Below, piece by piece: positions 26,499 to 41,917 of a stretch of 49,990 nucleotides of DNA (its first letter is position 1; each line of letters starts with the position of its first letter). The stretch is taken from the IMG/VR virus record IMGVR_UViG_3300009609_000007, one strand, 5' to 3'. Under the pieces are notes generated by a model. That model saw nothing but the letters and a program-made list of their open reading frames with translations, was not told the origin of the DNA and did not search any database. The translations under genes were made by a program, and so were the position numbers. The stretch comes from a virus.

Positions 26499-26990
26499 AT
26501 GTACGAAATCTCCAAAGAATTTGAATTCGACTACGGTCACAGAGTTCACAACCAAGTATTGAATAAAGAATATTCAATCAATACAATGTGCAAATGCCGA
26601 CACCTGCACGGGCATCGCGGCAAAGTGGTTGTATATTTAAAATCAAAGCAGCTTAATGAGTGTGGCATGGTTACGGATTTTAATCACTTAAATTGGTTAA
26701 AGGAATTAATCGACAACCAATTTGACCACAAATTTTTGTTAGATAAAAACGACCCAATGCAATTAGTTACCTACATAAAGGGCGACAATTTAAAATCAAG
26801 GGAGGCTATTGAAGATGAGGTTCTGGGCGGAATTAATTATGTCGACTTTAATCCAACATCAGAAAACCTTGCTAAAATGTTTTTCGAAATCGTAACCGCG
26901 AAAATGTATAAGCTGGGAATCCTTTGCAGCAAAATAGAATTCTACGAAACACCTAAATCAAAATCAACTTATTTTAATCCACATGGCTAA
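26499..26990 (+). CDS. queD: 6-carboxy-5,6,7,8-tetrahydropterin synthase
   Basis: FDYGHRV plus C33-x3-H37-G-H39 (CRHLHGH), the QueD/PTPS zinc and catalytic-Cys signature. 163 aa. Confidence 0.8.
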   Translation: MYEISKEFEFDYGHRVHNQVLNKEYSINTMCKCRHLHGHRGKVVVYLKSKQLNECGMVTDFNHLNWLKELIDNQFDHKFLLDKNDPMQLVTYIKGDNLKSREAIEDEVLGGINYVDFNPTSENLAKMFFEIVTAKMYKLGILCSKIEFYETPKSKSTYFNPHG

Positions 26991-27774
26991 AAATTTAATA
27001 GTATCAGAAATTTTCGCATCAATTCAAGGTGAAGGATGCACAATGGGATATCCGAGTATCTTTTTACGGCTCGCGGGCTGTAATTTAACCTGCGGAATTT
27101 CGCGTGAAACATTTTCTAAAAGCACAAAGCAATCCTGGCGACAAAGTGAAATAGAAAAAAACAAGCTGCCAGAAGCGACATGGGTTTGCGATACCATTTC
27201 TGTATGGAGAAAAGGCGTACCGTATGTCAACAAAGATTTACTTCACTTTATGAATGTACTTTGCGATTTCGAAACCAAAATTAACCGTGGCTGGCATTTA
27301 GTAATTACCGGAGGCGAGCCATTATTGCAAGAAGAAGCACTGGAAGAATTCCTACAATTCTTGGAAGACTTGGGCATACTGCCATACATTGAAATTGAAA
27401 CCAATTGCACTATTATACCGCAGAACAAAAAATTCATCAAGCGGGTAACGAATTGGAACGTAAGCCCTAAGCTAAATAATTCAGGGATGCCTATAGAGGT
27501 ACGTGAATTCGCAAGAGTGTACAAATGGTTCAACTGGCAGCGTGGAACGATATTTAAGTATGTTATATCAACAGACAAGGATTATCGCGCTGTAGAGCGC
27601 CTAATACAGTCTGGTTGGATTATACGGAACAAAGTCTGGCTCATGCCAGCAGCAAGTTCGCGCCAGGAATTAATTGAAAATAATAAGCGAGTCGCAGAGC
27701 TTGCAAAGAAAAATGATGTTAAATTTTGTACCAGATTACAATTAGAAATCTACAATCGCGCCACTGGTGTGTAA
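26983..27774 (+). CDS. queE: 7-carboxy-7-deazaguanine synthase (radical SAM)
   Basis: EIFASIQGEG...PSIFLRLAGCNLTC...WVCDT; VITGGEPLLQ SAM-binding motif. Overlaps the queD end. Confidence 0.75.
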   Translation: MAKNLIVSEIFASIQGEGCTMGYPSIFLRLAGCNLTCGISRETFSKSTKQSWRQSEIEKNKLPEATWVCDTISVWRKGVPYVNKDLLHFMNVLCDFETKINRGWHLVITGGEPLLQEEALEEFLQFLEDLGILPYIEIETNCTIIPQNKKFIKRVTNWNVSPKLNNSGMPIEVREFARVYKWFNWQRGTIFKYVISTDKDYRAVERLIQSGWIIRNKVWLMPAASSRQELIENNKRVAELAKKNDVKFCTRLQLEIYNRATGV

Positions 27775-27777
27775 ACT

Positions 27778-28359
27778 ATGAGCCCAAAACAAATCACAAT
27801 GGCTGACGAAGCCCAGCGCCAGCAAAAGGCAAAAGACAGTATTCAATACTTGCTGCAATACTTTGGCGAAGACCCTAATCGTGAAGGGCTTGTTGAAACG
27901 CCCAAACGGTATATAAAATTCATGAGGGAGTTTTTTAATCCGCCAGAGTTTGAAATGAAAACCTTTGACAATGACAAGCGGTATGACGAAATGGTGTGCG
28001 TAGACAACATACCGTTCTTTTCATTATGCGAGCATCATCTTGCTCCGTTCTTTGGCACTGCGGCAATCGCATACATACCGGACAAAAGAATAGTTGGCTT
28101 GTCAAAGCTGCCACGCACGTTGGAAAAGTTTTGCCGTAAGCTGCAATGCCAGGAACGTATCACTCAACAAGTATGCGACTATATTATGTCAGAATTAAAA
28201 CCGTTAGGGGTAGGGGTTAAATTAAAAGCTCGTCATTTGTGCATTGAAATGCGTGGCGTTCAGAAGCACGATGTCTTGACAACGACCTGTTCTTTAGCAG
28301 GTAATTTCAAGGAATCGCACGTTAAAGAAGAGTTCTTTAAGCACTTAAAAAACGGGTAA
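27778..28359 (+). CDS. folE: GTP cyclohydrolase I
   Basis: FFSLCEHHLAPFFG and LQCQERITQQ, the type I GCH signatures. 193 aa. Confidence 0.85.
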   Translation: MSPKQITMADEAQRQQKAKDSIQYLLQYFGEDPNREGLVETPKRYIKFMREFFNPPEFEMKTFDNDKRYDEMVCVDNIPFFSLCEHHLAPFFGTAAIAYIPDKRIVGLSKLPRTLEKFCRKLQCQERITQQVCDYIMSELKPLGVGVKLKARHLCIEMRGVQKHDVLTTTCSLAGNFKESHVKEEFFKHLKNG

Positions 28360-29395: not shown

Positions 29396-30517
29396 ATGAT
29401 GAATTTAAAAAGGTATATTAGAGCACAAAACTCAAGCGACATATTTCGCTTTTTATTATGGAAAGGCTTTGACAGAAAAACGCTCAGAGTCACTAAAGAC
29501 AATTTAGTAGCCTTGGCAATTAAGTACGCACAAGAGCAGCTAAAGACAGAAGACCTGGAAGACGTAGATACCAAACGCGAAGATTGGTTTGCAAACCAGG
29601 AATTTCTTTTATGGAACACGTCAGAAGGATGGAGAGTTAAAAGCACTTCTGGCGCTAAAAGAAGCCCTGTAACGGGCGGAAAAAGATTGCAGGATGCAAT
29701 ACGTGCCGAGTTAGAGTTAATTGGTTTAAAGCGTCCTGTTATTAATGAAATTAAAGTCAACGGTTATAAGCCAACTACAATTCCTGGTCGCGTTCATAAA
29801 AATCTGTCGCACGTTTTAAACTTAGCACAGGTTGAAAAGAACATTTATTTAGTTGGCGCTGCCGGCACCGGCAAAACTACTTTAGCAAAGCAAGCCGCGG
29901 AATCAATGGGATTAAATTTCGCCCAAGTAAGTTGCACGGAAGGAATGAGCGAAACTAAATTAATTGGTTATAATAATCTGGAGTCGCAATACATGGAACC
30001 GGATTTGGTTTCTATTTATGAAAAAGGCGGAGTGTTCCTGTTTGACGAAGTGGATGCCTCGGACAGCAACACGATGTTGATAATGAATTCCGCAATCGCT
30101 AACGGCATCCTAAGCGTACCTGCTCGCAGAAAAAAGACTCATGCCGTACGCCATAAAGATACGGTCATTATTTGCGCTGCCAATACATACGGCAATGGCT
30201 CGTTTGATTATGTAGGTCGCAATCAAATGGACGCTGCTTTTATGGACAGGTTTTCTTGCAGCAAAGTTCTTATAGAATACGACCAGGATTTGGAACGTGA
30301 AATATTACCTAACGAATTTTATCTAAACAAACTTTGGTCAATACGCGAAAGAATATTTGAAGTCAAAATTCGCAAAGTAATGTCAACCCGTACCGTGGCA
30401 AGTGTATCTCGGCAAATGAGTGCTGGTACCACTTACAATCAAATCATGGAGGCTTATACGTTGGGATGGACATCTGAAGAGATTGAAAAAATTGGGAAGG
30501 AGAAATTCAAATCATGA
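29396..30517 (+). CDS. AAA+ ATPase (AAA_5 / MoxR / CobS-like)
   Basis: Walker A in LVGAAGTGKTT; Walker B in VFLFDEVDA; AANTYG...DAAFMDRF. Confidence 0.6.
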   Translation: MMNLKRYIRAQNSSDIFRFLLWKGFDRKTLRVTKDNLVALAIKYAQEQLKTEDLEDVDTKREDWFANQEFLLWNTSEGWRVKSTSGAKRSPVTGGKRLQDAIRAELELIGLKRPVINEIKVNGYKPTTIPGRVHKNLSHVLNLAQVEKNIYLVGAAGTGKTTLAKQAAESMGLNFAQVSCTEGMSETKLIGYNNLESQYMEPDLVSIYEKGGVFLFDEVDASDSNTMLIMNSAIANGILSVPARRKKTHAVRHKDTVIICAANTYGNGSFDYVGRNQMDAAFMDRFSCSKVLIEYDQDLEREILPNEFYLNKLWSIRERIFEVKIRKVMSTRTVASVSRQMSAGTTYNQIMEAYTLGWTSEEIEKIGKEKFKS

Positions 30518-31353
30518 ATTTAACTCACCATAAAGAATTAGATTTAAAACAACTGTCTTTTTCTGGTTTGCAGGATTTTGTTTCAGAAACCAATAAATGG
30601 TTGTACACAGGAAACTGGCAAGATAATTGGACTACTGGCAGGAAATATACTGCCGGCGAAACACTTGCTAATTTAAAAATGGGAATTGGCGACATAAAAT
30701 TTGTCGCCAATACAACCAACAAAGTTGAGCGGTATATAAATAATGAAGAAATTACTGCGCTTCTAAACAATGCCTACGAGAAGAAAAAGAAACATAAAAA
30801 GTCTTTCGAAGAAGGCGAAATAAATCTTGGCAGGTATTTTGCAGGCGACCCAGAATGTTTTGACTTGCAGTACAAACAAAAAAGGGCAAAAGGTGTTCGC
30901 ATTGCCGTTGATGCGGGAATTACAGCTAATGAAGACATGGCAATATTTACCAAGGTAGCAGAGTCCGCTATAATAATAACAAACATCTTGTCGGCGTATG
31001 CTATTCCAACACAGGTTGACGCTGTATTTACCGGAATAAACACACTACATAATACCAAATATGTGGTGATGAATTTTCCTTTAAAAGAATCAACACAGAA
31101 AATCGACATTGCTATGTTGGGAATATTCGAAATGCCTTACCTGTTAAGGGGTGTCGCGTTCGCTGCCTTTAAAAATCTGTTCCAAGAATCTGCTCGTGGT
31201 GGCTTAGGGAGAGATTGCATATATGCCGCCGAGTCTTTATTTAAAGACGAAAACGGATACGATTTAATAATTCATAAAAATAATTGCAGCGAAGAAAATA
31301 TTACTGCCCTAATCAAACAAGTTTTAATATCACGTCAAATTCAAACAATTTAA
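30514..31353 (+). CDS. Partner protein of the AAA+ ATPase (CobT/vWA-like position)
   Basis: ATGA overlap with the ATPase gene. I recognised no motif. Confidence 0.25.
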   Translation: MNLTHHKELDLKQLSFSGLQDFVSETNKWLYTGNWQDNWTTGRKYTAGETLANLKMGIGDIKFVANTTNKVERYINNEEITALLNNAYEKKKKHKKSFEEGEINLGRYFAGDPECFDLQYKQKRAKGVRIAVDAGITANEDMAIFTKVAESAIIITNILSAYAIPTQVDAVFTGINTLHNTKYVVMNFPLKESTQKIDIAMLGIFEMPYLLRGVAFAAFKNLFQESARGGLGRDCIYAAESLFKDENGYDLIIHKNNCSEENITALIKQVLISRQIQTI

Positions 31354-31875: not shown

Positions 31876-32477
31876 ATGAAAACAGTAACAATCAAAGACG
31901 CGAGTTACCCGCAGCTCCAAAAACGTGCGGGAGAATTAAATATTGCAACTATTGGCAAGCGAATGGAAGAGCTTCGCGGTGCTATTAAAAAAGCTCAAGA
32001 CGGCAAGGACGACTTCGAGGTTGCGGATGCGGTTAAGAAAACGCCCGCTCCAACACCTGCGGCCGCCTCTGCGCCTACTTTATCTGCCCAACTTGCTTCT
32101 GTACCCATTACAGTAAAGAAGCCCGCAGAACCCGCCAAAAGCAGCAAAAAAGCAGCGAGCCCAAAAAAAAAGCTCGTAAAGAGCCTAAGGCTAAAGCTAA
32201 GTCCCAAGCACCCAAAAAAGCTGCAAAGCCTGCGAAAGAAGCTAAAATTAAGCCAGAAGGCAAGAAGAAGCTCGATGATAAAGCTGGCAATGTAGTTAAA
32301 TCAAAGACCCTTAAAAAAGGGGTAAAAGTGCAATACCTTCTACAAGAGGGTTATGACAGGGCATTTATTGCCGAAAAATTAAGCACTACGGTAGGCAGCG
32401 TAAATAATAACGCCAGGCACTATGCTCTCCATCCTGAACAATTAAAGAAAGCAAGAGCAGCATGGACAGAAGCATAA
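31876..32477 (+). CDS. DNA-binding-like protein (SAP/Rho-N-like N-terminus, Lys/Ala/Pro-rich linker, HTH-like C-terminus) that needs a -1 shift in an A9 run to be read through
   Basis: Frame 1 ORF 31876..32295. After the A-run at 32163-32171 the -1 frame stays open for 105 codons with no ATG to the TAA at 32475-77, and continues the KAP-rich composition (PKKKARKEPKAKAKSQAPKKAAKPAKEAK...). Confidence 0.5.
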
Positions 32478-32785
32478 TAATAAATCTGCGGGTAGAGGGT
32501 TACCACCGCTATCCCGCAGCGCCTGCGGAAACAAAATTTCTCGCAGATTTGCACCGGCACATCTTCCACATAACTGCCGAAAAAAATGTATCGCATAATA
32601 ACCGCGATATAGAATTTGTTGCGCTAAAATGGAATATTGAAAAGTATTTCAAGGACAAATTTCCTGACAAACAATTTGGCGAAATGTCTTGTGAAGATAT
32701 TGCAGAATATTTATGCCTTGAGTTTGAATTAGATTCATGCACCGTAATGGAGGACGGAGAAAATGGAGCAAAGGTCAAAAGGTAA
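32462..32785 (+). CDS. QueD/PTPS-like T-fold protein lacking the catalytic Cys
   Basis: H15 ... H31-R-H33 (GYHRY...LADLHRHIF) mirrors the QueD zinc ligands. Leu occupies the position of the CxxxHGH Cys. 107 aa. Confidence 0.45.
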   Translation: MDRSIIINLRVEGYHRYPAAPAETKFLADLHRHIFHITAEKNVSHNNRDIEFVALKWNIEKYFKDKFPDKQFGEMSCEDIAEYLCLEFELDSCTVMEDGENGAKVKR

Positions 32786-33788
32786 TATTTACTACCTGCC
32801 AATTGAGAACCTTGAGCAGCGTTATACCAAAATGATGAACGATGTTTTATCGCCATGGTGCTCTTTTACAATTTATCCCACAGGCTTTGAAAATGAAGTA
32901 ATATCTAACGGTCAATTTCTTGATACGTTCCGCACAATTAAATTCAAAGCAGCTCAACTGCAAGTTGTTTCTGACCTGTTTAATCAGGGCACGATAAAAA
33001 ATGGCGATGTATTTTTGGTTGCTGACATTTTCTTTCCTGGCATTGAATCTATTAAATACATGGCAGAACTTTCTGGTATTACCGTACACGTATATGGATT
33101 CAACCACGCGGGCAGGGCAGACGATACGGACTTTGTTCAACGACTCGGAAAGTGGGCAGATAAAAGCGAGCAGGGTTATCACGAGATATGTGATGGAATA
33201 TTTGTGGGCAGCGTGTACCACAAAGGTCACATTATAGACCATTTTAATTATCCTGAAGAAAAAATTCATGTTACGGGAATGGTTTGGGATATTGACTGGC
33301 TAACAAATGTATATCCTTATGGCAATGACGCCAAGGAGGATTACTGCATATACCCACATCGCCTTAGTCCAGAAAAAGGTACGGATGAATTTTTTCGAGT
33401 AGCCGAAGAAAACCTTGACATTCAATTTATAGTTACTTGTTCGGGCAAATCTTATTCCGGCAAAGTTCCGGTTAATGTGACTATCTGCGAGCAGATGACA
33501 AAGAAACAATACTATGAAAAAATGTCGAAAGCCAGATGGTATTTAAGCACATCTAACCATGAGAACTTTGGCTATACCTTGCAGGAGGCTATTCTATATG
33601 GCTGCGAAATTTGCGTACCCAACAGGGCTTGTTATCCTGAAATGGTGCCTTTAAGAAACCTTTGGTACACACATGAAGATATTCAAGATTTTTTTCATGC
33701 TGCATTAAAGGGCATTTACAAAGTTCCTTTAGGTTATACATTACAACATCACAATAACGCTCAAAGAATAATACAAATAATACAATGA
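32763..33788 (+). CDS. GT-B fold glycosyltransferase (GT4-like)
   Basis: E-x7-E motif in SNHENFGYTLQEAILYGCEICVPN. 341 aa. Overlaps both neighbours. Confidence 0.55.
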   Translation: MEQRSKGNIYYLPIENLEQRYTKMMNDVLSPWCSFTIYPTGFENEVISNGQFLDTFRTIKFKAAQLQVVSDLFNQGTIKNGDVFLVADIFFPGIESIKYMAELSGITVHVYGFNHAGRADDTDFVQRLGKWADKSEQGYHEICDGIFVGSVYHKGHIIDHFNYPEEKIHVTGMVWDIDWLTNVYPYGNDAKEDYCIYPHRLSPEKGTDEFFRVAEENLDIQFIVTCSGKSYSGKVPVNVTICEQMTKKQYYEKMSKARWYLSTSNHENFGYTLQEAILYGCEICVPNRACYPEMVPLRNLWYTHEDIQDFFHAALKGIYKVPLGYTLQHHNNAQRIIQIIQ

Positions 33789-34570
33789 AAATACTCGTAG
33801 CCGGAAGTCCTACAAATGACGCTGACAAGCTATGCGTCAAACATGACGTAGGCAAATTGTATTCTTATCTTAATGAGCAAAACGAAATCCGAGAATGGAA
33901 TCATGGGCAAATGTTAATGGTTGACAGCGGGGCTCATAGTTGGAATAAAACGTCTATCAACAAAGCAGGTATGGCGAGCAGTAAAAAGCCTTTGCCTTCC
34001 GCTAAAGTTCATTATGACGAATACATTCAATTTATGAAAGTGCATAAAGACAAGCCGTTAGTATTTGTGGAATTAGATGTGTATGGCAAGCTGGACAAAG
34101 ATTATCTTGACGCTAAATACAACGAAACAAAACAAATAGGCGGCATGGTTCAGGTTATGCGAGTTTACCATGAGATGCTCGACGGAGGCTCTTTAAAAGT
34201 TTTAAAAGAGTGGATTGATGATGGACAGACATACATTGGTCTTGGCTCTGATGCCAAACAGCATTATGATAAAATATTTAAGCTAACTAAGGACAAAATA
34301 AAATATCACGGCTTTGCTCTTACGCAAATAAACATGGTGGAGCGGTATCCGTTTTATTCCGTTGACAGCACATCGCCAATCGCAACGGTTATTTTCGGAC
34401 TGTTTTTTGAAAAGTATTTATCTTGCATAGGCAAAGACAAAATGATAAAAAAACGCCACTGGAAATTGATGATGAATGACGGTGAGCGTTTAGAAGACGC
34501 CATTAAAAACGTAAAATCAACTGAATTATATTTAACAGACCTTTGGGCGCGGCGCGGAGTAATATGGTAA
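33785..34570 (+). CDS. dpdA: DpdA-like DNA guanine transglycosylase (TGT superfamily)
   Basis: MLMVDSGAHSW (compare TGT DSGGFQ) and YHGFALT...YSVDSTSP. In the same genome as folE, queD and queE. Confidence 0.55.
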   Translation: MKILVAGSPTNDADKLCVKHDVGKLYSYLNEQNEIREWNHGQMLMVDSGAHSWNKTSINKAGMASSKKPLPSAKVHYDEYIQFMKVHKDKPLVFVELDVYGKLDKDYLDAKYNETKQIGGMVQVMRVYHEMLDGGSLKVLKEWIDDGQTYIGLGSDAKQHYDKIFKLTKDKIKYHGFALTQINMVERYPFYSVDSTSPIATVIFGLFFEKYLSCIGKDKMIKKRHWKLMMNDGERLEDAIKNVKSTELYLTDLWARRGVIW

Positions 34571-34583
34571 AAACAAAATTAAT

Positions 34584-35060
34584 ATGGTAGAAATAAACAC
34601 AGACAAAATCAGCATGGCTCCTTGGACTTGCACCGAGGCAGACGAAGGCATAATGCACAAACTAAAATCGTCAATACGAAAGTTTGGTCAGGCAAGAAAT
34701 ATAACTGTCGTACATCACAAGAGCATTGATGTTTACGAATGTATTGAGGGTCGTAAAATATTAAATACGCTGCGGTCGTTAGGATTGCCTACCGCCTGGT
34801 GTAACGTGCTAACGGATGTAGAAAGTTCTTTTAGCAAGTCTTTAAATATTACACTTAATTTCTTGCAGCCAGAAATAGAATACATTGGTTGCAGCGAATT
34901 GATAAAAGAGATTTCGAAAGACCAGCCCTTACATCATATTAATTTACACCTGCCTTGGAGCGCGGAGGAATTAAAAAAGATAAAGCAGCTCGCGGACTTC
35001 GACTGGTCGCAATATGACGATGTGGTGTCTCCCAATCAACAAGATTTATTTGGCGCTTAA
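34584..35060 (+). CDS. ParB N-terminal domain-like protein (DpdB-like position)
   Basis: ECIEGRKILNTLRSLGLP resembles the ParB GERR/GxxRxxA box. Directly downstream of the dpdA-like gene. Confidence 0.45.
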   Translation: MVEINTDKISMAPWTCTEADEGIMHKLKSSIRKFGQARNITVVHHKSIDVYECIEGRKILNTLRSLGLPTAWCNVLTDVESSFSKSLNITLNFLQPEIEYIGCSELIKEISKDQPLHHINLHLPWSAEELKKIKQLADFDWSQYDDVVSPNQQDLFGA

Positions 35061-41074: not shown

Positions 41075-41917
41075 ATGGATACAGAAATAGAAAAAATACA
41101 TCAGGGCTACATTAATGAGTTGGTAAGGAGAAAATATGCGAGCTCTACTATTACAGCATATTCTTCGAACTTCAATAAATTCCTGTACCATTTCAAGGCG
41201 GATTTTGAAAACATAACCAAGCAGCAAATCTTAGATTGGTTATTGTACCTTGTTGAGAAAGACAAAATTTCGTCAGCATACCAAAACCATTTGATAAATT
41301 CCATCAAATTCTATTATGAACAAATTTTAGGCAGGGCAAAAGAAATTTATGACATCAAACGCCCGAGAAAAGAATTTAAGATTCCGGACTTGCTTACAGA
41401 CGAAGAGTTGCAAAGATTATTTAATGCTTGCACAAATATTAAACACAAGGTTGCTTTATCTCTGTTATACGGTTGCGGATTAAGGCGCTCGGAGGTCATA
41501 CATTTAAAATTAGATTGCATCACAGAAACATATTTAAGAATCGTACAATCAAAAGGCAAGAAAGACCGGTACGTACCATTGCCAGAAAATGTAGCGAACC
41601 TTATAAAACAATATCGCGAAAAATATAATCCAAAAGTATATTTATTTAACGGCCAAAACGGAATATTGCAGTACTCGGCAGAAAGCATGGCGCAATTCTT
41701 AAATAAGTATGCCACAGAAGCAGGAATCACAAAGAACGTTCACTCGCACCTGCTCAGACACAATTTTATCACAGAGCATTGCGAAGACGGAACCAACTCT
41801 ATGGAGCTCATGGAAATCGTTGGTCATAGTTCACCTAAAACATTAAAAAGATATTACCATTTTCGCAGACCAGAAAAACTTCATTTAAAATCTCCTATCA
41901 ATAAAATTAATTTGTAA
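41075..41917 (+). CDS. Tyrosine recombinase, XerC/XerD-like (SAM-like N-domain + catalytic domain)
   Basis: R (GCGLRRSE), K (SKGKKDRYVPL), HxxR (HLLRHNF), H (VGHSS), Y (LKRYYH). 280 aa. Only 58 aa between GKKDR and HLLRH, so no IntI-type insertion. Confidence 0.8.
   Translation: MDTEIEKIHQGYINELVRRKYASSTITAYSSNFNKFLYHFKADFENITKQQILDWLLYLVEKDKISSAYQNHLINSIKFYYEQILGRAKEIYDIKRPRKEFKIPDLLTDEELQRLFNACTNIKHKVALSLLYGCGLRRSEVIHLKLDCITETYLRIVQSKGKKDRYVPLPENVANLIKQYREKYNPKVYLFNGQNGILQYSAESMAQFLNKYATEAGITKNVHSHLLRHNFITEHCEDGTNSMELMEIVGHSSPKTLKRYYHFRRPEKLHLKSPINKINL

Follow-up and report, generated by a model that had tools for sequence, protein, structure and literature searches.

Organization of the four-gene block

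We analysed a stretch of viral DNA, IMG/VR record IMGVR_UViG_3300009609_000007, hereafter called the window, which covers 49,990 of the ~50,081 nucleotides (nt) of its contig. Between positions 32462 and 35060, four open reading frames (ORFs) lie in tandem on the plus strand and encode, in this order, a DpdL-like protein, a glycosyltransferase (GT), a DpdA-like protein and a ParB-like protein (Table 1). ORF1 and ORF2 overlap by 23 nt, ORF2 and ORF3 share the sequence ATGA at positions 33785-33788 and a gap of 13 nt separates ORF3 from ORF4, with the start codon of ORF2 lying inside the DpdL coding region and its stop codon inside that of DpdA. No terminator-like site was found on the plus strand inside the block. 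An original prediction, made by a model from the sequence alone, had proposed that the four genes are expressed together; the overlaps, the short gap and the terminator-free block fit this proposal, and the coordinates, overlaps, gap and motifs quoted there were all reproduced exactly. Independent gene callers reported the same four proteins on four contigs of ~48-50 kb from different samples, and a nucleotide search with the operon against 50,697 phage records gave no match. As argued below, there is about an even chance that the window encodes a DpdL-type pathway for 7-deazaguanine modification of DNA together with an extra GT that glycosylates the deazaguanine moiety.

ORF1 and ORF3 are DpdL and DpdA

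Judged by homology, ORF1 is a member of DpdL, a family already named in 2023. In Cellulophaga phage phiST, DpdL was described as a QueD paralog in which the CxxxHGH motif is replaced by LxxxHRHxF, and it was found in phages that have DpdA, FolE, QueD and QueE but lack QueC (PMC10516641, Cui, Hutinet et al., NAR 2023). ORF1 carries the signature as LADLHRHIF at residues 27-35, has H15, L27, H31 and H33, and can be aligned with all DpdLs along its full length. It is 38% identical to phiST CGPG_00067 (tblastn 2e-16, blastp 2e-23) and also matches the DpdL of phage ACP17 (tblastn 3e-4, blastp 1e-9) and phrog_17812 (8e-24). The window likewise encodes DpdA, FolE, QueD and QueE, and QueC was not found in it. 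The homology and the signature thus replace the view of the original prediction, which had taken ORF1 for an undescribed T-fold tailoring protein. A Pfam hmmscan of ORF1 gave no match to PTPS or to any other family, and alignment with QueD left only H33, E78 and E97 in common; the published relationship between QueD and DpdL rests on HHpred (PMC10516641).

Among 145 non-identical DpdL homologs, residues H15, L27, H31, H33, F35, R48, E51, S76, C77, E78, E97 and D98 were invariant in all, and R32 was kept in 144, the single change being R32 to F. ORF1 had also been called Cys-less, which holds for the CxxxHGH position, where no Cys is present, but not for the protein as a whole, in which Cys77 belongs to the invariant set. 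This Cys lies within the tripeptide S-C-E, the Glu of which aligns with a conserved Glu of QueD; the published description of DpdL stresses the lost CxxxHGH Cys and does not discuss the S-C-E Cys (PMC10516641). In three loci, including that of Chryseobacterium phage MA9V-3, the DpdL domain forms the C-terminal end of ORFs of 260-320 amino acids (aa), the N-terminal parts of which had no Pfam match and may represent fusions or miscalled starts. When long DpdL ORFs were examined for fusions, only a fusion to an AAA_18 protein of the phiST type was seen.

By sequence comparison, ORF3 is a genuine DpdA of the DpdA1/DpdA2-like type. It matched phrog_887, annotated as 'queuine tRNA-ribosyltransferase' (3e-19), and hhalign of the ORF3 family scored 99.4% against the validated DpdA1 of phage CAjan (E 6.8e-22) and 99.8% against the DpdA of Mycobacterium phage Bipper. 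The AlphaFold2 (AF2) model of ORF3, with a predicted local distance difference test score (pLDDT) of 93.8, has the alternating beta/alpha arrangement of a TIM barrel. In BFVD it matched phage models of tRNA-guanine transglycosylase (TGT) or DpdA with a template modelling score (TM) of up to 0.80, for example that of Arthrobacter phage Mufasa8 (1.3e-11, TM 0.72), a protein of Vibrio phage nt-1 and entries from Mycobacterium, Microbacterium and Sulfolobales viruses. Foldseek against the PDB returned only generic TIM barrels (E ≥1.7e-3) and neither a TGT nor the Salmonella DpdA structure 7UI4, and the ORF3 sequence profile found nothing significant in the PDB. In curated libraries, Pfam gave one spurious weak match, and NCBIfam and PADLOC gave no DpdA.

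The catalytic residues are in place. ORF3 carries the motifs MVDSGAHSW at residue 45, YHGF at 174 and YSVDSTS at 191, and D47, D98, H129, H175 and D194 were invariant across 20 sequences that included CAjan and Bipper. The best PDB profile match of ORF3, to 7UI4, was weak (E 0.79), yet it places D47, H129 and D194 opposite Asp95, His181 and Asp256, which serve as acid/base, in base recognition and as nucleophile, respectively (PMC10164549), and D98 is probably the counterpart of Asp130. The original reading of ORF3 as a TGT/DpdA protein is thus upheld, by the match to CAjan DpdA1 and by the mapping of these residues.

ORF2 is a GT4-type glycosyltransferase

Judging from its predicted structure, ORF2 is a retaining GT-B glycosyltransferase of the GT4 type. 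The AF2 model (pLDDT 91.8) shows the two Rossmann domains of the GT-B fold, and Foldseek against the PDB returned 313 matches at E ≤1e-3, with MshA (6.7e-12), PglA, BshA and GlgM as the top neighbours, together with sucrose-phosphate synthase; tetrahydrobiopterin glucosyltransferase was matched at 3.5e-10. Pfam Glycos_transf_1 was matched at 24.6 bits (E 2.1e-5), below its gathering score of 26.4. The sequence HENFGYTLQEAILYG at residue 266 provides the E-x7-E motif, with E267 and E275; both the fold and the motif had been anticipated in the original prediction. R200, K205, E267 and E275 are invariant across the GT family, including the homologs of phages ACP17, PA5oct and Phosso, and R200 and K205 would bind the donor diphosphate by analogy with PimA and MshA. 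Since these residues are retained, ORF2 should be active with a nucleoside diphosphate (NDP)-sugar donor, and it is probably catalytically competent.

Linkage of the glycosyltransferase to DpdL and transglycosylase genes

A scan of IMG/VR for relatives of ORF2 found at least 595 viral contigs. Among the best 80 of these loci, DpdL was near the GT in 76, the four exceptions having the GT at the end of the contig; FolE was present in 59 and QueE in 51. The GT and DpdL were on the same strand in every pair (122/122), with a median gap of 235 nt. In a search seeded with DpdL, the GT was present in 48 of 80 loci. Within these DpdL-seeded loci it accompanied about half of the window-type DpdAs, 22 of 24 PA5oct gene 316-like (PA5_316-like) proteins and all three proteins resembling ACP17 gene 403 (ACP17_403), and none of 13 DpdA3 proteins of the phiST type.

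A transglycosylase-like gene was found together with the GT in every lineage examined. For example, in loci of the order ParB, X, DpdL, GT, the ~300-aa gene X upstream of DpdL represents a second DpdA type (99.1%), and in a Bacillota metagenome-assembled genome (L180) the GT is paired with a CAjan-like DpdA1. ACP17_403 matches the TGT superfamily model TIGR00449 (4.6e-7) and is related to PA5_316 at 96% by hhalign; comparison of either protein with the DpdA profiles was not significant, and the assignment of PA5_316 as a DpdA is indirectly supported through its relation to ACP17_403. Co-occurrence of the GT and the QueD-like gene with dpdA, proposed as a check in the original prediction, was thus observed across several transglycosylase lineages. 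Among cultured phages, the GT directly adjoins DpdL in Acidovorax phage ACP17, Pseudomonas phage PA5oct and its relatives, Sinorhizobium phage Phosso and Synechococcus phage BUCT-ZZ01, and lies ~1.5 to 3 kb from it in Xanthomonas phages X1 and BUDD and Burkholderia phage BCSR5. Unbiased clustering of the neighbours of the GT loci revealed no sugar-nucleotide enzyme and no other universal partner.

These data bear on the possibility that the GT is a moron with no connection to the pathway: it would modify the O-antigen, teichoic acid or capsule of the host envelope so as to exclude superinfecting phages, and would have its place in the operon by accident. The JGI label of 'glycosyltransferase involved in cell wall biosynthesis', weak matches to lipid and lipoteichoic acid glycosyltransferase models and the integrase carried by the phage would suit such a role. 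However, an accidental position is difficult to reconcile with the presence of DpdL in 76 of 80 loci across several transglycosylase lineages and unrelated hosts, the uniform strand and the coding overlap with both neighbours; the GT is also present in the jumbo phage PA5oct and the large phage ACP17, and its family occurs at just 11 loci in the genomes of 185,579 cellular species. We therefore consider an envelope moron highly improbable, and the GT is very likely a working part of the deazaguanine pathway.

ORF4 is a short ParB-like protein

ORF4 carries a ParB-N box, IEGRKILNTLRSLG, at residue 54, and its assignment as ParB-like in the original prediction agrees with its match to phrog_16545 (8e-13); six other PHROGs were matched, five of which are annotated as ParB-like, nuclease or DNA methyltransferase. 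Pfam gave no match to ParB_N or any other family. The relatives of ORF4 are ~230 aa long and have a GNHR box, whereas ORF4 is truncated and has GRKI (EGRKI) at this box. A ParB-like gene was found within 2.5 kb of the window-type DpdA in 14 of 27 related loci, and one lies beside DpdA in phages Roos and Bipper. ORF4 is thus a plausible accessory factor of DpdA, the gene not being obligatory. It had also been seen as mirroring DpdB, a protein of about 436 aa. We rejected ORF4 as a DpdB, as neither NCBIfam nor PADLOC gave a match to a DpdB model, the NTPase box is degenerate and the protein is much shorter.

A proposed pathway and its alternatives

By homology, FolE, QueD and QueE would convert GTP into 7-carboxy-7-deazaguanine (CDG), from which DpdL is proposed to produce 7-deazaguanine (DG) (PMC10516641). 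DpdA, with its catalytic residues in place, would swap guanine in the phage DNA for the deazaguanine base, and ORF4 may assist it, as DpdB assists the bacterial DpdA. ORF2, in view of its gene linkage, would then transfer a sugar from a host NDP-sugar onto the deazaguanine moiety, acting either on the free base before insertion by DpdA or on the base already in DNA, and virion DNA would hold glycosylated 7-deazaguanine instead of plain 7-deaza-2'-deoxyguanosine (dDG). We lean slightly towards the free base as acceptor, in view of the small-molecule type of the structural neighbours of ORF2 and the acidic isoelectric point (pI) of its family, the latter being a weak argument.

Neither a QueC homolog nor a PP-loop motif was found in the window, and no QueC was found in the flanks of 126 GT-positive and 154 DpdL-positive viral loci; as a control, the CAjan QueC was recovered by phmmer and that of Bacteroides phage BS162P1 by its motif. 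In the absence of QueC the phage does not make preQ0, and FolE, QueD, QueE and DpdL without QueC lead, by the published logic, to a prediction of dDG. This nucleoside has been measured in the virus DNA of phiST, phi19:2 and phi13:1. The phiST-group phages have no GT, and the signature residues of DpdL are identical whether or not the GT is in the locus, so that tailoring by the GT appears to be an extra step. The most economical role for it is the placing of a sugar on the deazaguanine moiety. Of the original proposal that the GT and the T-fold protein tailor the inserted deazaguanine, the connection of the GT to the pathway is thus supported by comparative genomics, the T-fold protein has proved to be the known DpdL, and a sugar adduct is still something that we infer.

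It is rather unlikely, in our estimate, that the pathway makes plain dDG and that the GT acts on an intermediate of the small-molecule type, on a pterin or on a partner protein, leaving no sugar on the DNA. The gene set of FolE, QueD, QueE, DpdL and DpdA without QueC is the published signature of dDG, which also replaces G completely in Vibrio phage VP1, outside the phiST group (bioRxiv 10.1101/2025.10.29.685425). However, phiST-type phages make dDG with the same DpdL residues and no GT, the known route from GTP to DG has no glycosyl-transfer step, and a retained enzyme with such strict linkage implies a distinct product.

Several observations nevertheless weigh against a sugar on the deazaguanine, and some of them would be expected with plain dDG. 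7-Deazaguanine has neither a hydroxyl nor a side-chain amine as a handle for a sugar; we know of no retaining GT4 enzyme that attaches a sugar to C7 or C8, N2, O6 or the CDG carboxylate, and the linkage would be unusual, either a C- or N-glycosidic bond or an ester formed with CDG. The structural neighbours of ORF2 are mostly GT4 enzymes with small-molecule acceptors, tetrahydrobiopterin glucosyltransferase among them, and the alpha- and beta-glucosyltransferases of phage T4 (AGT and BGT) were absent from the 50 best PDB matches of the model. The GT family is acidic (pI ~5), which is not suggestive of DNA binding; a low pI is also seen in the transglycosylase-like proteins encoded by phiST, ACP17 and PA5oct, and we dropped pI as a weak indicator. 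The decarboxylation of CDG to 7-deazaguanine proposed for DpdL has never been demonstrated (PMC10516641). Since DpdL works without the GT in the phiST group and has the same signature residues there, DG can be made without the GT, the substrate of which these facts do not reveal. Finally, four of the 11 cellular loci, on Hyphomicrobiales chromosomes, combine the GT with a DpdA-like gene but lack DpdL, so the GT may accept something other than DG. With these points considered, the chance that the sugar ends up on the DNA base is even or slightly less.

The GT might instead target another site in DNA or RNA, or a host nucleic acid such as queuosine-containing tRNA, with its link to DpdA reflecting a joint anti-restriction role. 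Phage anti-defence genes are often clustered, the GT module of an Ochrobactrum chromosome lies beside the type IV restriction enzyme GmrSD, and glycosyltransferases acting on tRNA queuosine are known (PMC12518689). Yet the linkage is specific to DpdL and DpdA-like genes and does not extend to other modification systems, and the phage lacks QueA, QueG and any other gene for making the cyclopentenediol acceptor. Pfam or PHROGs scans of 34 ORFs of the window revealed no hydroxymethyl-pyrimidine pathway gene, in keeping with the earlier remark that the genome shows no thymidylate synthase-like hydroxymethylase. We regard such a target as quite improbable.

Comparison with known systems

The core from GTP through CDG and DpdL to DpdA is already known; what is new is the widespread GT in deazaguanine clusters. 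The window resembles phiST in the order QueD, QueE, FolE, followed by DpdL, one further gene and a transglycosylase of ~260 aa, and in the lack of QueC. However, between DpdL and the transglycosylase phiST encodes a 159-aa AAA_18 P-loop protein, and the window the 341-aa GT4 enzyme. The transglycosylase of phiST, CGPG_00065, belongs to DpdA3, the phiST/Campylobacter type linked to complete replacement of G, and is unrelated to ORF3 at the profile level (hhalign 2.8%); we found no blastp match between the two and rejected ORF3 as a DpdA3. The kinase-like AAA_18 protein (CGPG_00066), to which no role has been assigned in the phiST cluster (PMC10516641), never co-occurs with the GT; in two metagenomic loci it occurs as a fusion with DpdL. 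DpdL may depend on a partner enzyme.

In ACP17 (ASD50403-50405) and PA5oct (EST35_0316-0318), three adjoining genes encode a transglycosylase-like protein, a homolog of the GT and DpdL, with QueD, FolE and QueE on the flanks, the same pathway genes as in the window. Their GT homologs share 26-28% identity with ORF2 (E 1e-27 to 4e-29). They differ from the window in gene order, in a transglycosylase of another lineage (424 to 540 aa), in the lack of a ParB-like gene, and in their Proteobacteria hosts and large or jumbo genomes. The bacterial Dpd system (PMC10164549; 7UI4) shares with the window a TIM-barrel transglycosylase with a catalytic Asp/Asp/His/Asp set, encoded beside a gene of the ParB superfamily, but its DpdB, a large ATPase, has DGQQR at the box where the 158-aa ORF4 has GRKI, and the bacterial system inserts preQ0 and has no glycosyltransferase.

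To our knowledge, all known DNA glycosylation is on hydroxymethyl-pyrimidines, and the eight deazaguanines known from DNA carry a small group at C7 or none. The T4 alpha- and beta-glucosyltransferases, which act on 5-hydroxymethylcytosine, would be functional analogues of ORF2, as phage GT-B enzymes that decorate a non-canonical base in the major groove and add a second anti-restriction layer; judged by the 50 best PDB matches, they have no specific structural similarity to ORF2, and the acceptor of ORF2 would be a purine analogue without the hydroxymethyl handle. The sole precedent for a sugar on a 7-deazaguanine is provided by QTMAN and QTGAL, which add mannose or galactose to queuosine in tRNA (PMC12518689). 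These enzymes likewise modify a 7-deazaguanine derivative within a nucleic acid, but their substrate is animal tRNA and their acceptor the cyclopentenediol hydroxyl of queuosine, which is beyond the gene set of the window phage. Our full-text literature search found no paper on glycosylated deazaguanine in DNA or on a GT of the ORF2 type.

Phages with the DpdL-GT-DpdA trio, namely the window phage, PA5oct and ACP17 as well as hundreds of marine and soil phages not yet in culture, may replace guanine with glycosylated 7-deazaguanine, and a bacterial module of DpdA-like gene, YhhQ and GT may do likewise; we hold this wider proposal tentatively, at somewhat less than an even chance. If it is true, a glycosyltransferase family dedicated to this task would produce the first purine in any DNA to bear a sugar; this would be a new chemical class of DNA base and would probably add a second barrier to the type IV nucleases and glycosylases directed against deazaguanine DNA. 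The G modification of PA5oct would likewise be identified; the DNA of this phage resists restriction enzymes in a pattern pointing to modified G, with no mass spectrometry reported (PMC12191111). Expression of dpdL and dpdA of phiST and of ACP17 in Escherichia coli did not yield dDG, and the authors suggested that further enzymes, as yet unknown, may be needed (PMC10516641); the ACP17 experiment did not include the GT, which would be a candidate for such an enzyme. PA5oct and ACP17, as cultured phages with the same trio, make the sugar hypothesis directly testable. Even with plain dDG as the product, the DpdL-linked GT family would need a role in the pathway and the chemistry of DpdL a renewed look.

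Other genes of the window and related loci

Table 1. Positions of the features described in the window and, where an L number is given, in the related loci
Feature	Position	Strand	Length (aa)	Assignment or remark
ORF1	32462-32785	+	107	DpdL family member, QueD paralog, proposed CDG decarboxylase
ORF2	32763-33788	+	341	GT4-type GT-B glycosyltransferase
ORF3	33785-34570	+	261	DpdA, DNA-guanine transglycosylase, DpdA1/DpdA2-like
ORF4	34584-35060	+	158	Short ParB-N-like protein, possible DpdA accessory factor
QueD	26499-26990	+		6-Carboxy-tetrahydropterin (CPH4) synthase; Pfam PTPS 3.6e-30, phrog_2389 1e-33; C33-x3-H37-G-H39
QueE-like radical SAM protein	26983-27774	+		CDG synthase; phrog_2076 6e-49
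FolE	27778-28359	+		GTP cyclohydrolase I; Pfam GTP_cyclohydroI 2e-60
AAA_5 ATPase and DUF7192 protein	29396-31353			Between FolE and DpdL; MoxR/CobS-like ATPase, phrog_249
Histone H1-like protein	31876-32295		139	Lys/Ala/Pro-rich, low complexity; directly upstream of the operon
Tyrosine integrase	41075-41917			phrog_1 7e-45
TilS-type PP-loop ORFs	L132 503-1114; L133 2229-2840; L135 2163-2774; L141 1247-1855; L153 1449-2081			PF01171 ~1e-31 in the three scanned
ORFs with C-terminal DpdL domain	L004 8452-9333 (MA9V-3); L094 9805-10761; L146 4836-5615		260-320
AAA_18 protein of phiST	L006 9320-9799		159	CGPG_00066
AAA_18-DpdL fusions	L096 7186-8154; L137 9917-10885			Metagenomic loci
Faecalibacterium phage Roos locus	L005 8303-10899			ParB-like, DpdL, DpdA, YhhQ-type transporter; genome end
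PA5_316-like gene and GT	L177 8052-11050; L172 8086-11032; L174; L178			Ochrobactrum sp. MYb379 (L177), Pelagibacterium (L172, L174), Rhizobiales (L178)
GmrSD type IV restriction enzyme	L177 2638-4551			Adjoins the Ochrobactrum module
Integrase	L177 14558-15820			Adjoins the Ochrobactrum module

The genes for the early steps of the pathway lie upstream of the four-gene block (Table 1), and the QueE-like protein is 32% identical to the QueE of Chryseobacterium phage MA9V-3. PP-loop ORFs in some of the GT loci were considered as QueC and rejected, being of the TilS type (PF01171) or the PAPS-reductase type, with one unassigned; those of the TilS type recur ~7-8 kb from DpdL in loci of the PA5_316 type. 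The Roos locus has DpdL and DpdA together with a YhhQ-type transporter and no FolE, QueD or QueE. Roos would be a DpdL phage using an imported or host-made precursor, which would be hard to reconcile with CDG as the sole substrate of DpdL.

The four Hyphomicrobiales loci with a PA5_316-like gene and the GT have no DpdL, FolE or QueE within 10 kb. In the two that were inspected, L172 and L177, a YhhQ/Vut_1 queuosine-precursor transporter lies between the DpdA-like gene and the GT, and in Ochrobactrum the module adjoins an integrase as well as GmrSD. The module may be a cellular counterpart of the modification, or else be left over from a prophage.

The window, ~50 kb long, represents a tailed phage and has genes for a portal, a large terminase, Sak4, NinB and a tyrosine integrase, and the occurrence of ~50 kb contigs with differing start points suggests a complete, permuted genome. 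The original prediction had assumed a Bacteroidota host, which is not established by our data: the Bacteroidota -7 motif TAnnTTTG occurs 52 times in the whole window against 65.6 expected and is not enriched. A sigma-70 promoter scan performed no better than on shuffled sequences. The closest relatives of the window DpdL come from phages of Chryseobacterium, Faecalibacterium and Cellulophaga. The histone H1-like protein encoded directly upstream of the operon had no family match and was called as 199 aa in some of the sister contigs. Between FolE and DpdL, the genes for the AAA_5 ATPase and the DUF7192 protein overlap in their coding regions, and this pair is common in phages. The integrase was matched by Pfam Phage_integrase on the sister contigs, and the phage is possibly temperate, which is unusual alongside a pathway for deazaguanine replacement.

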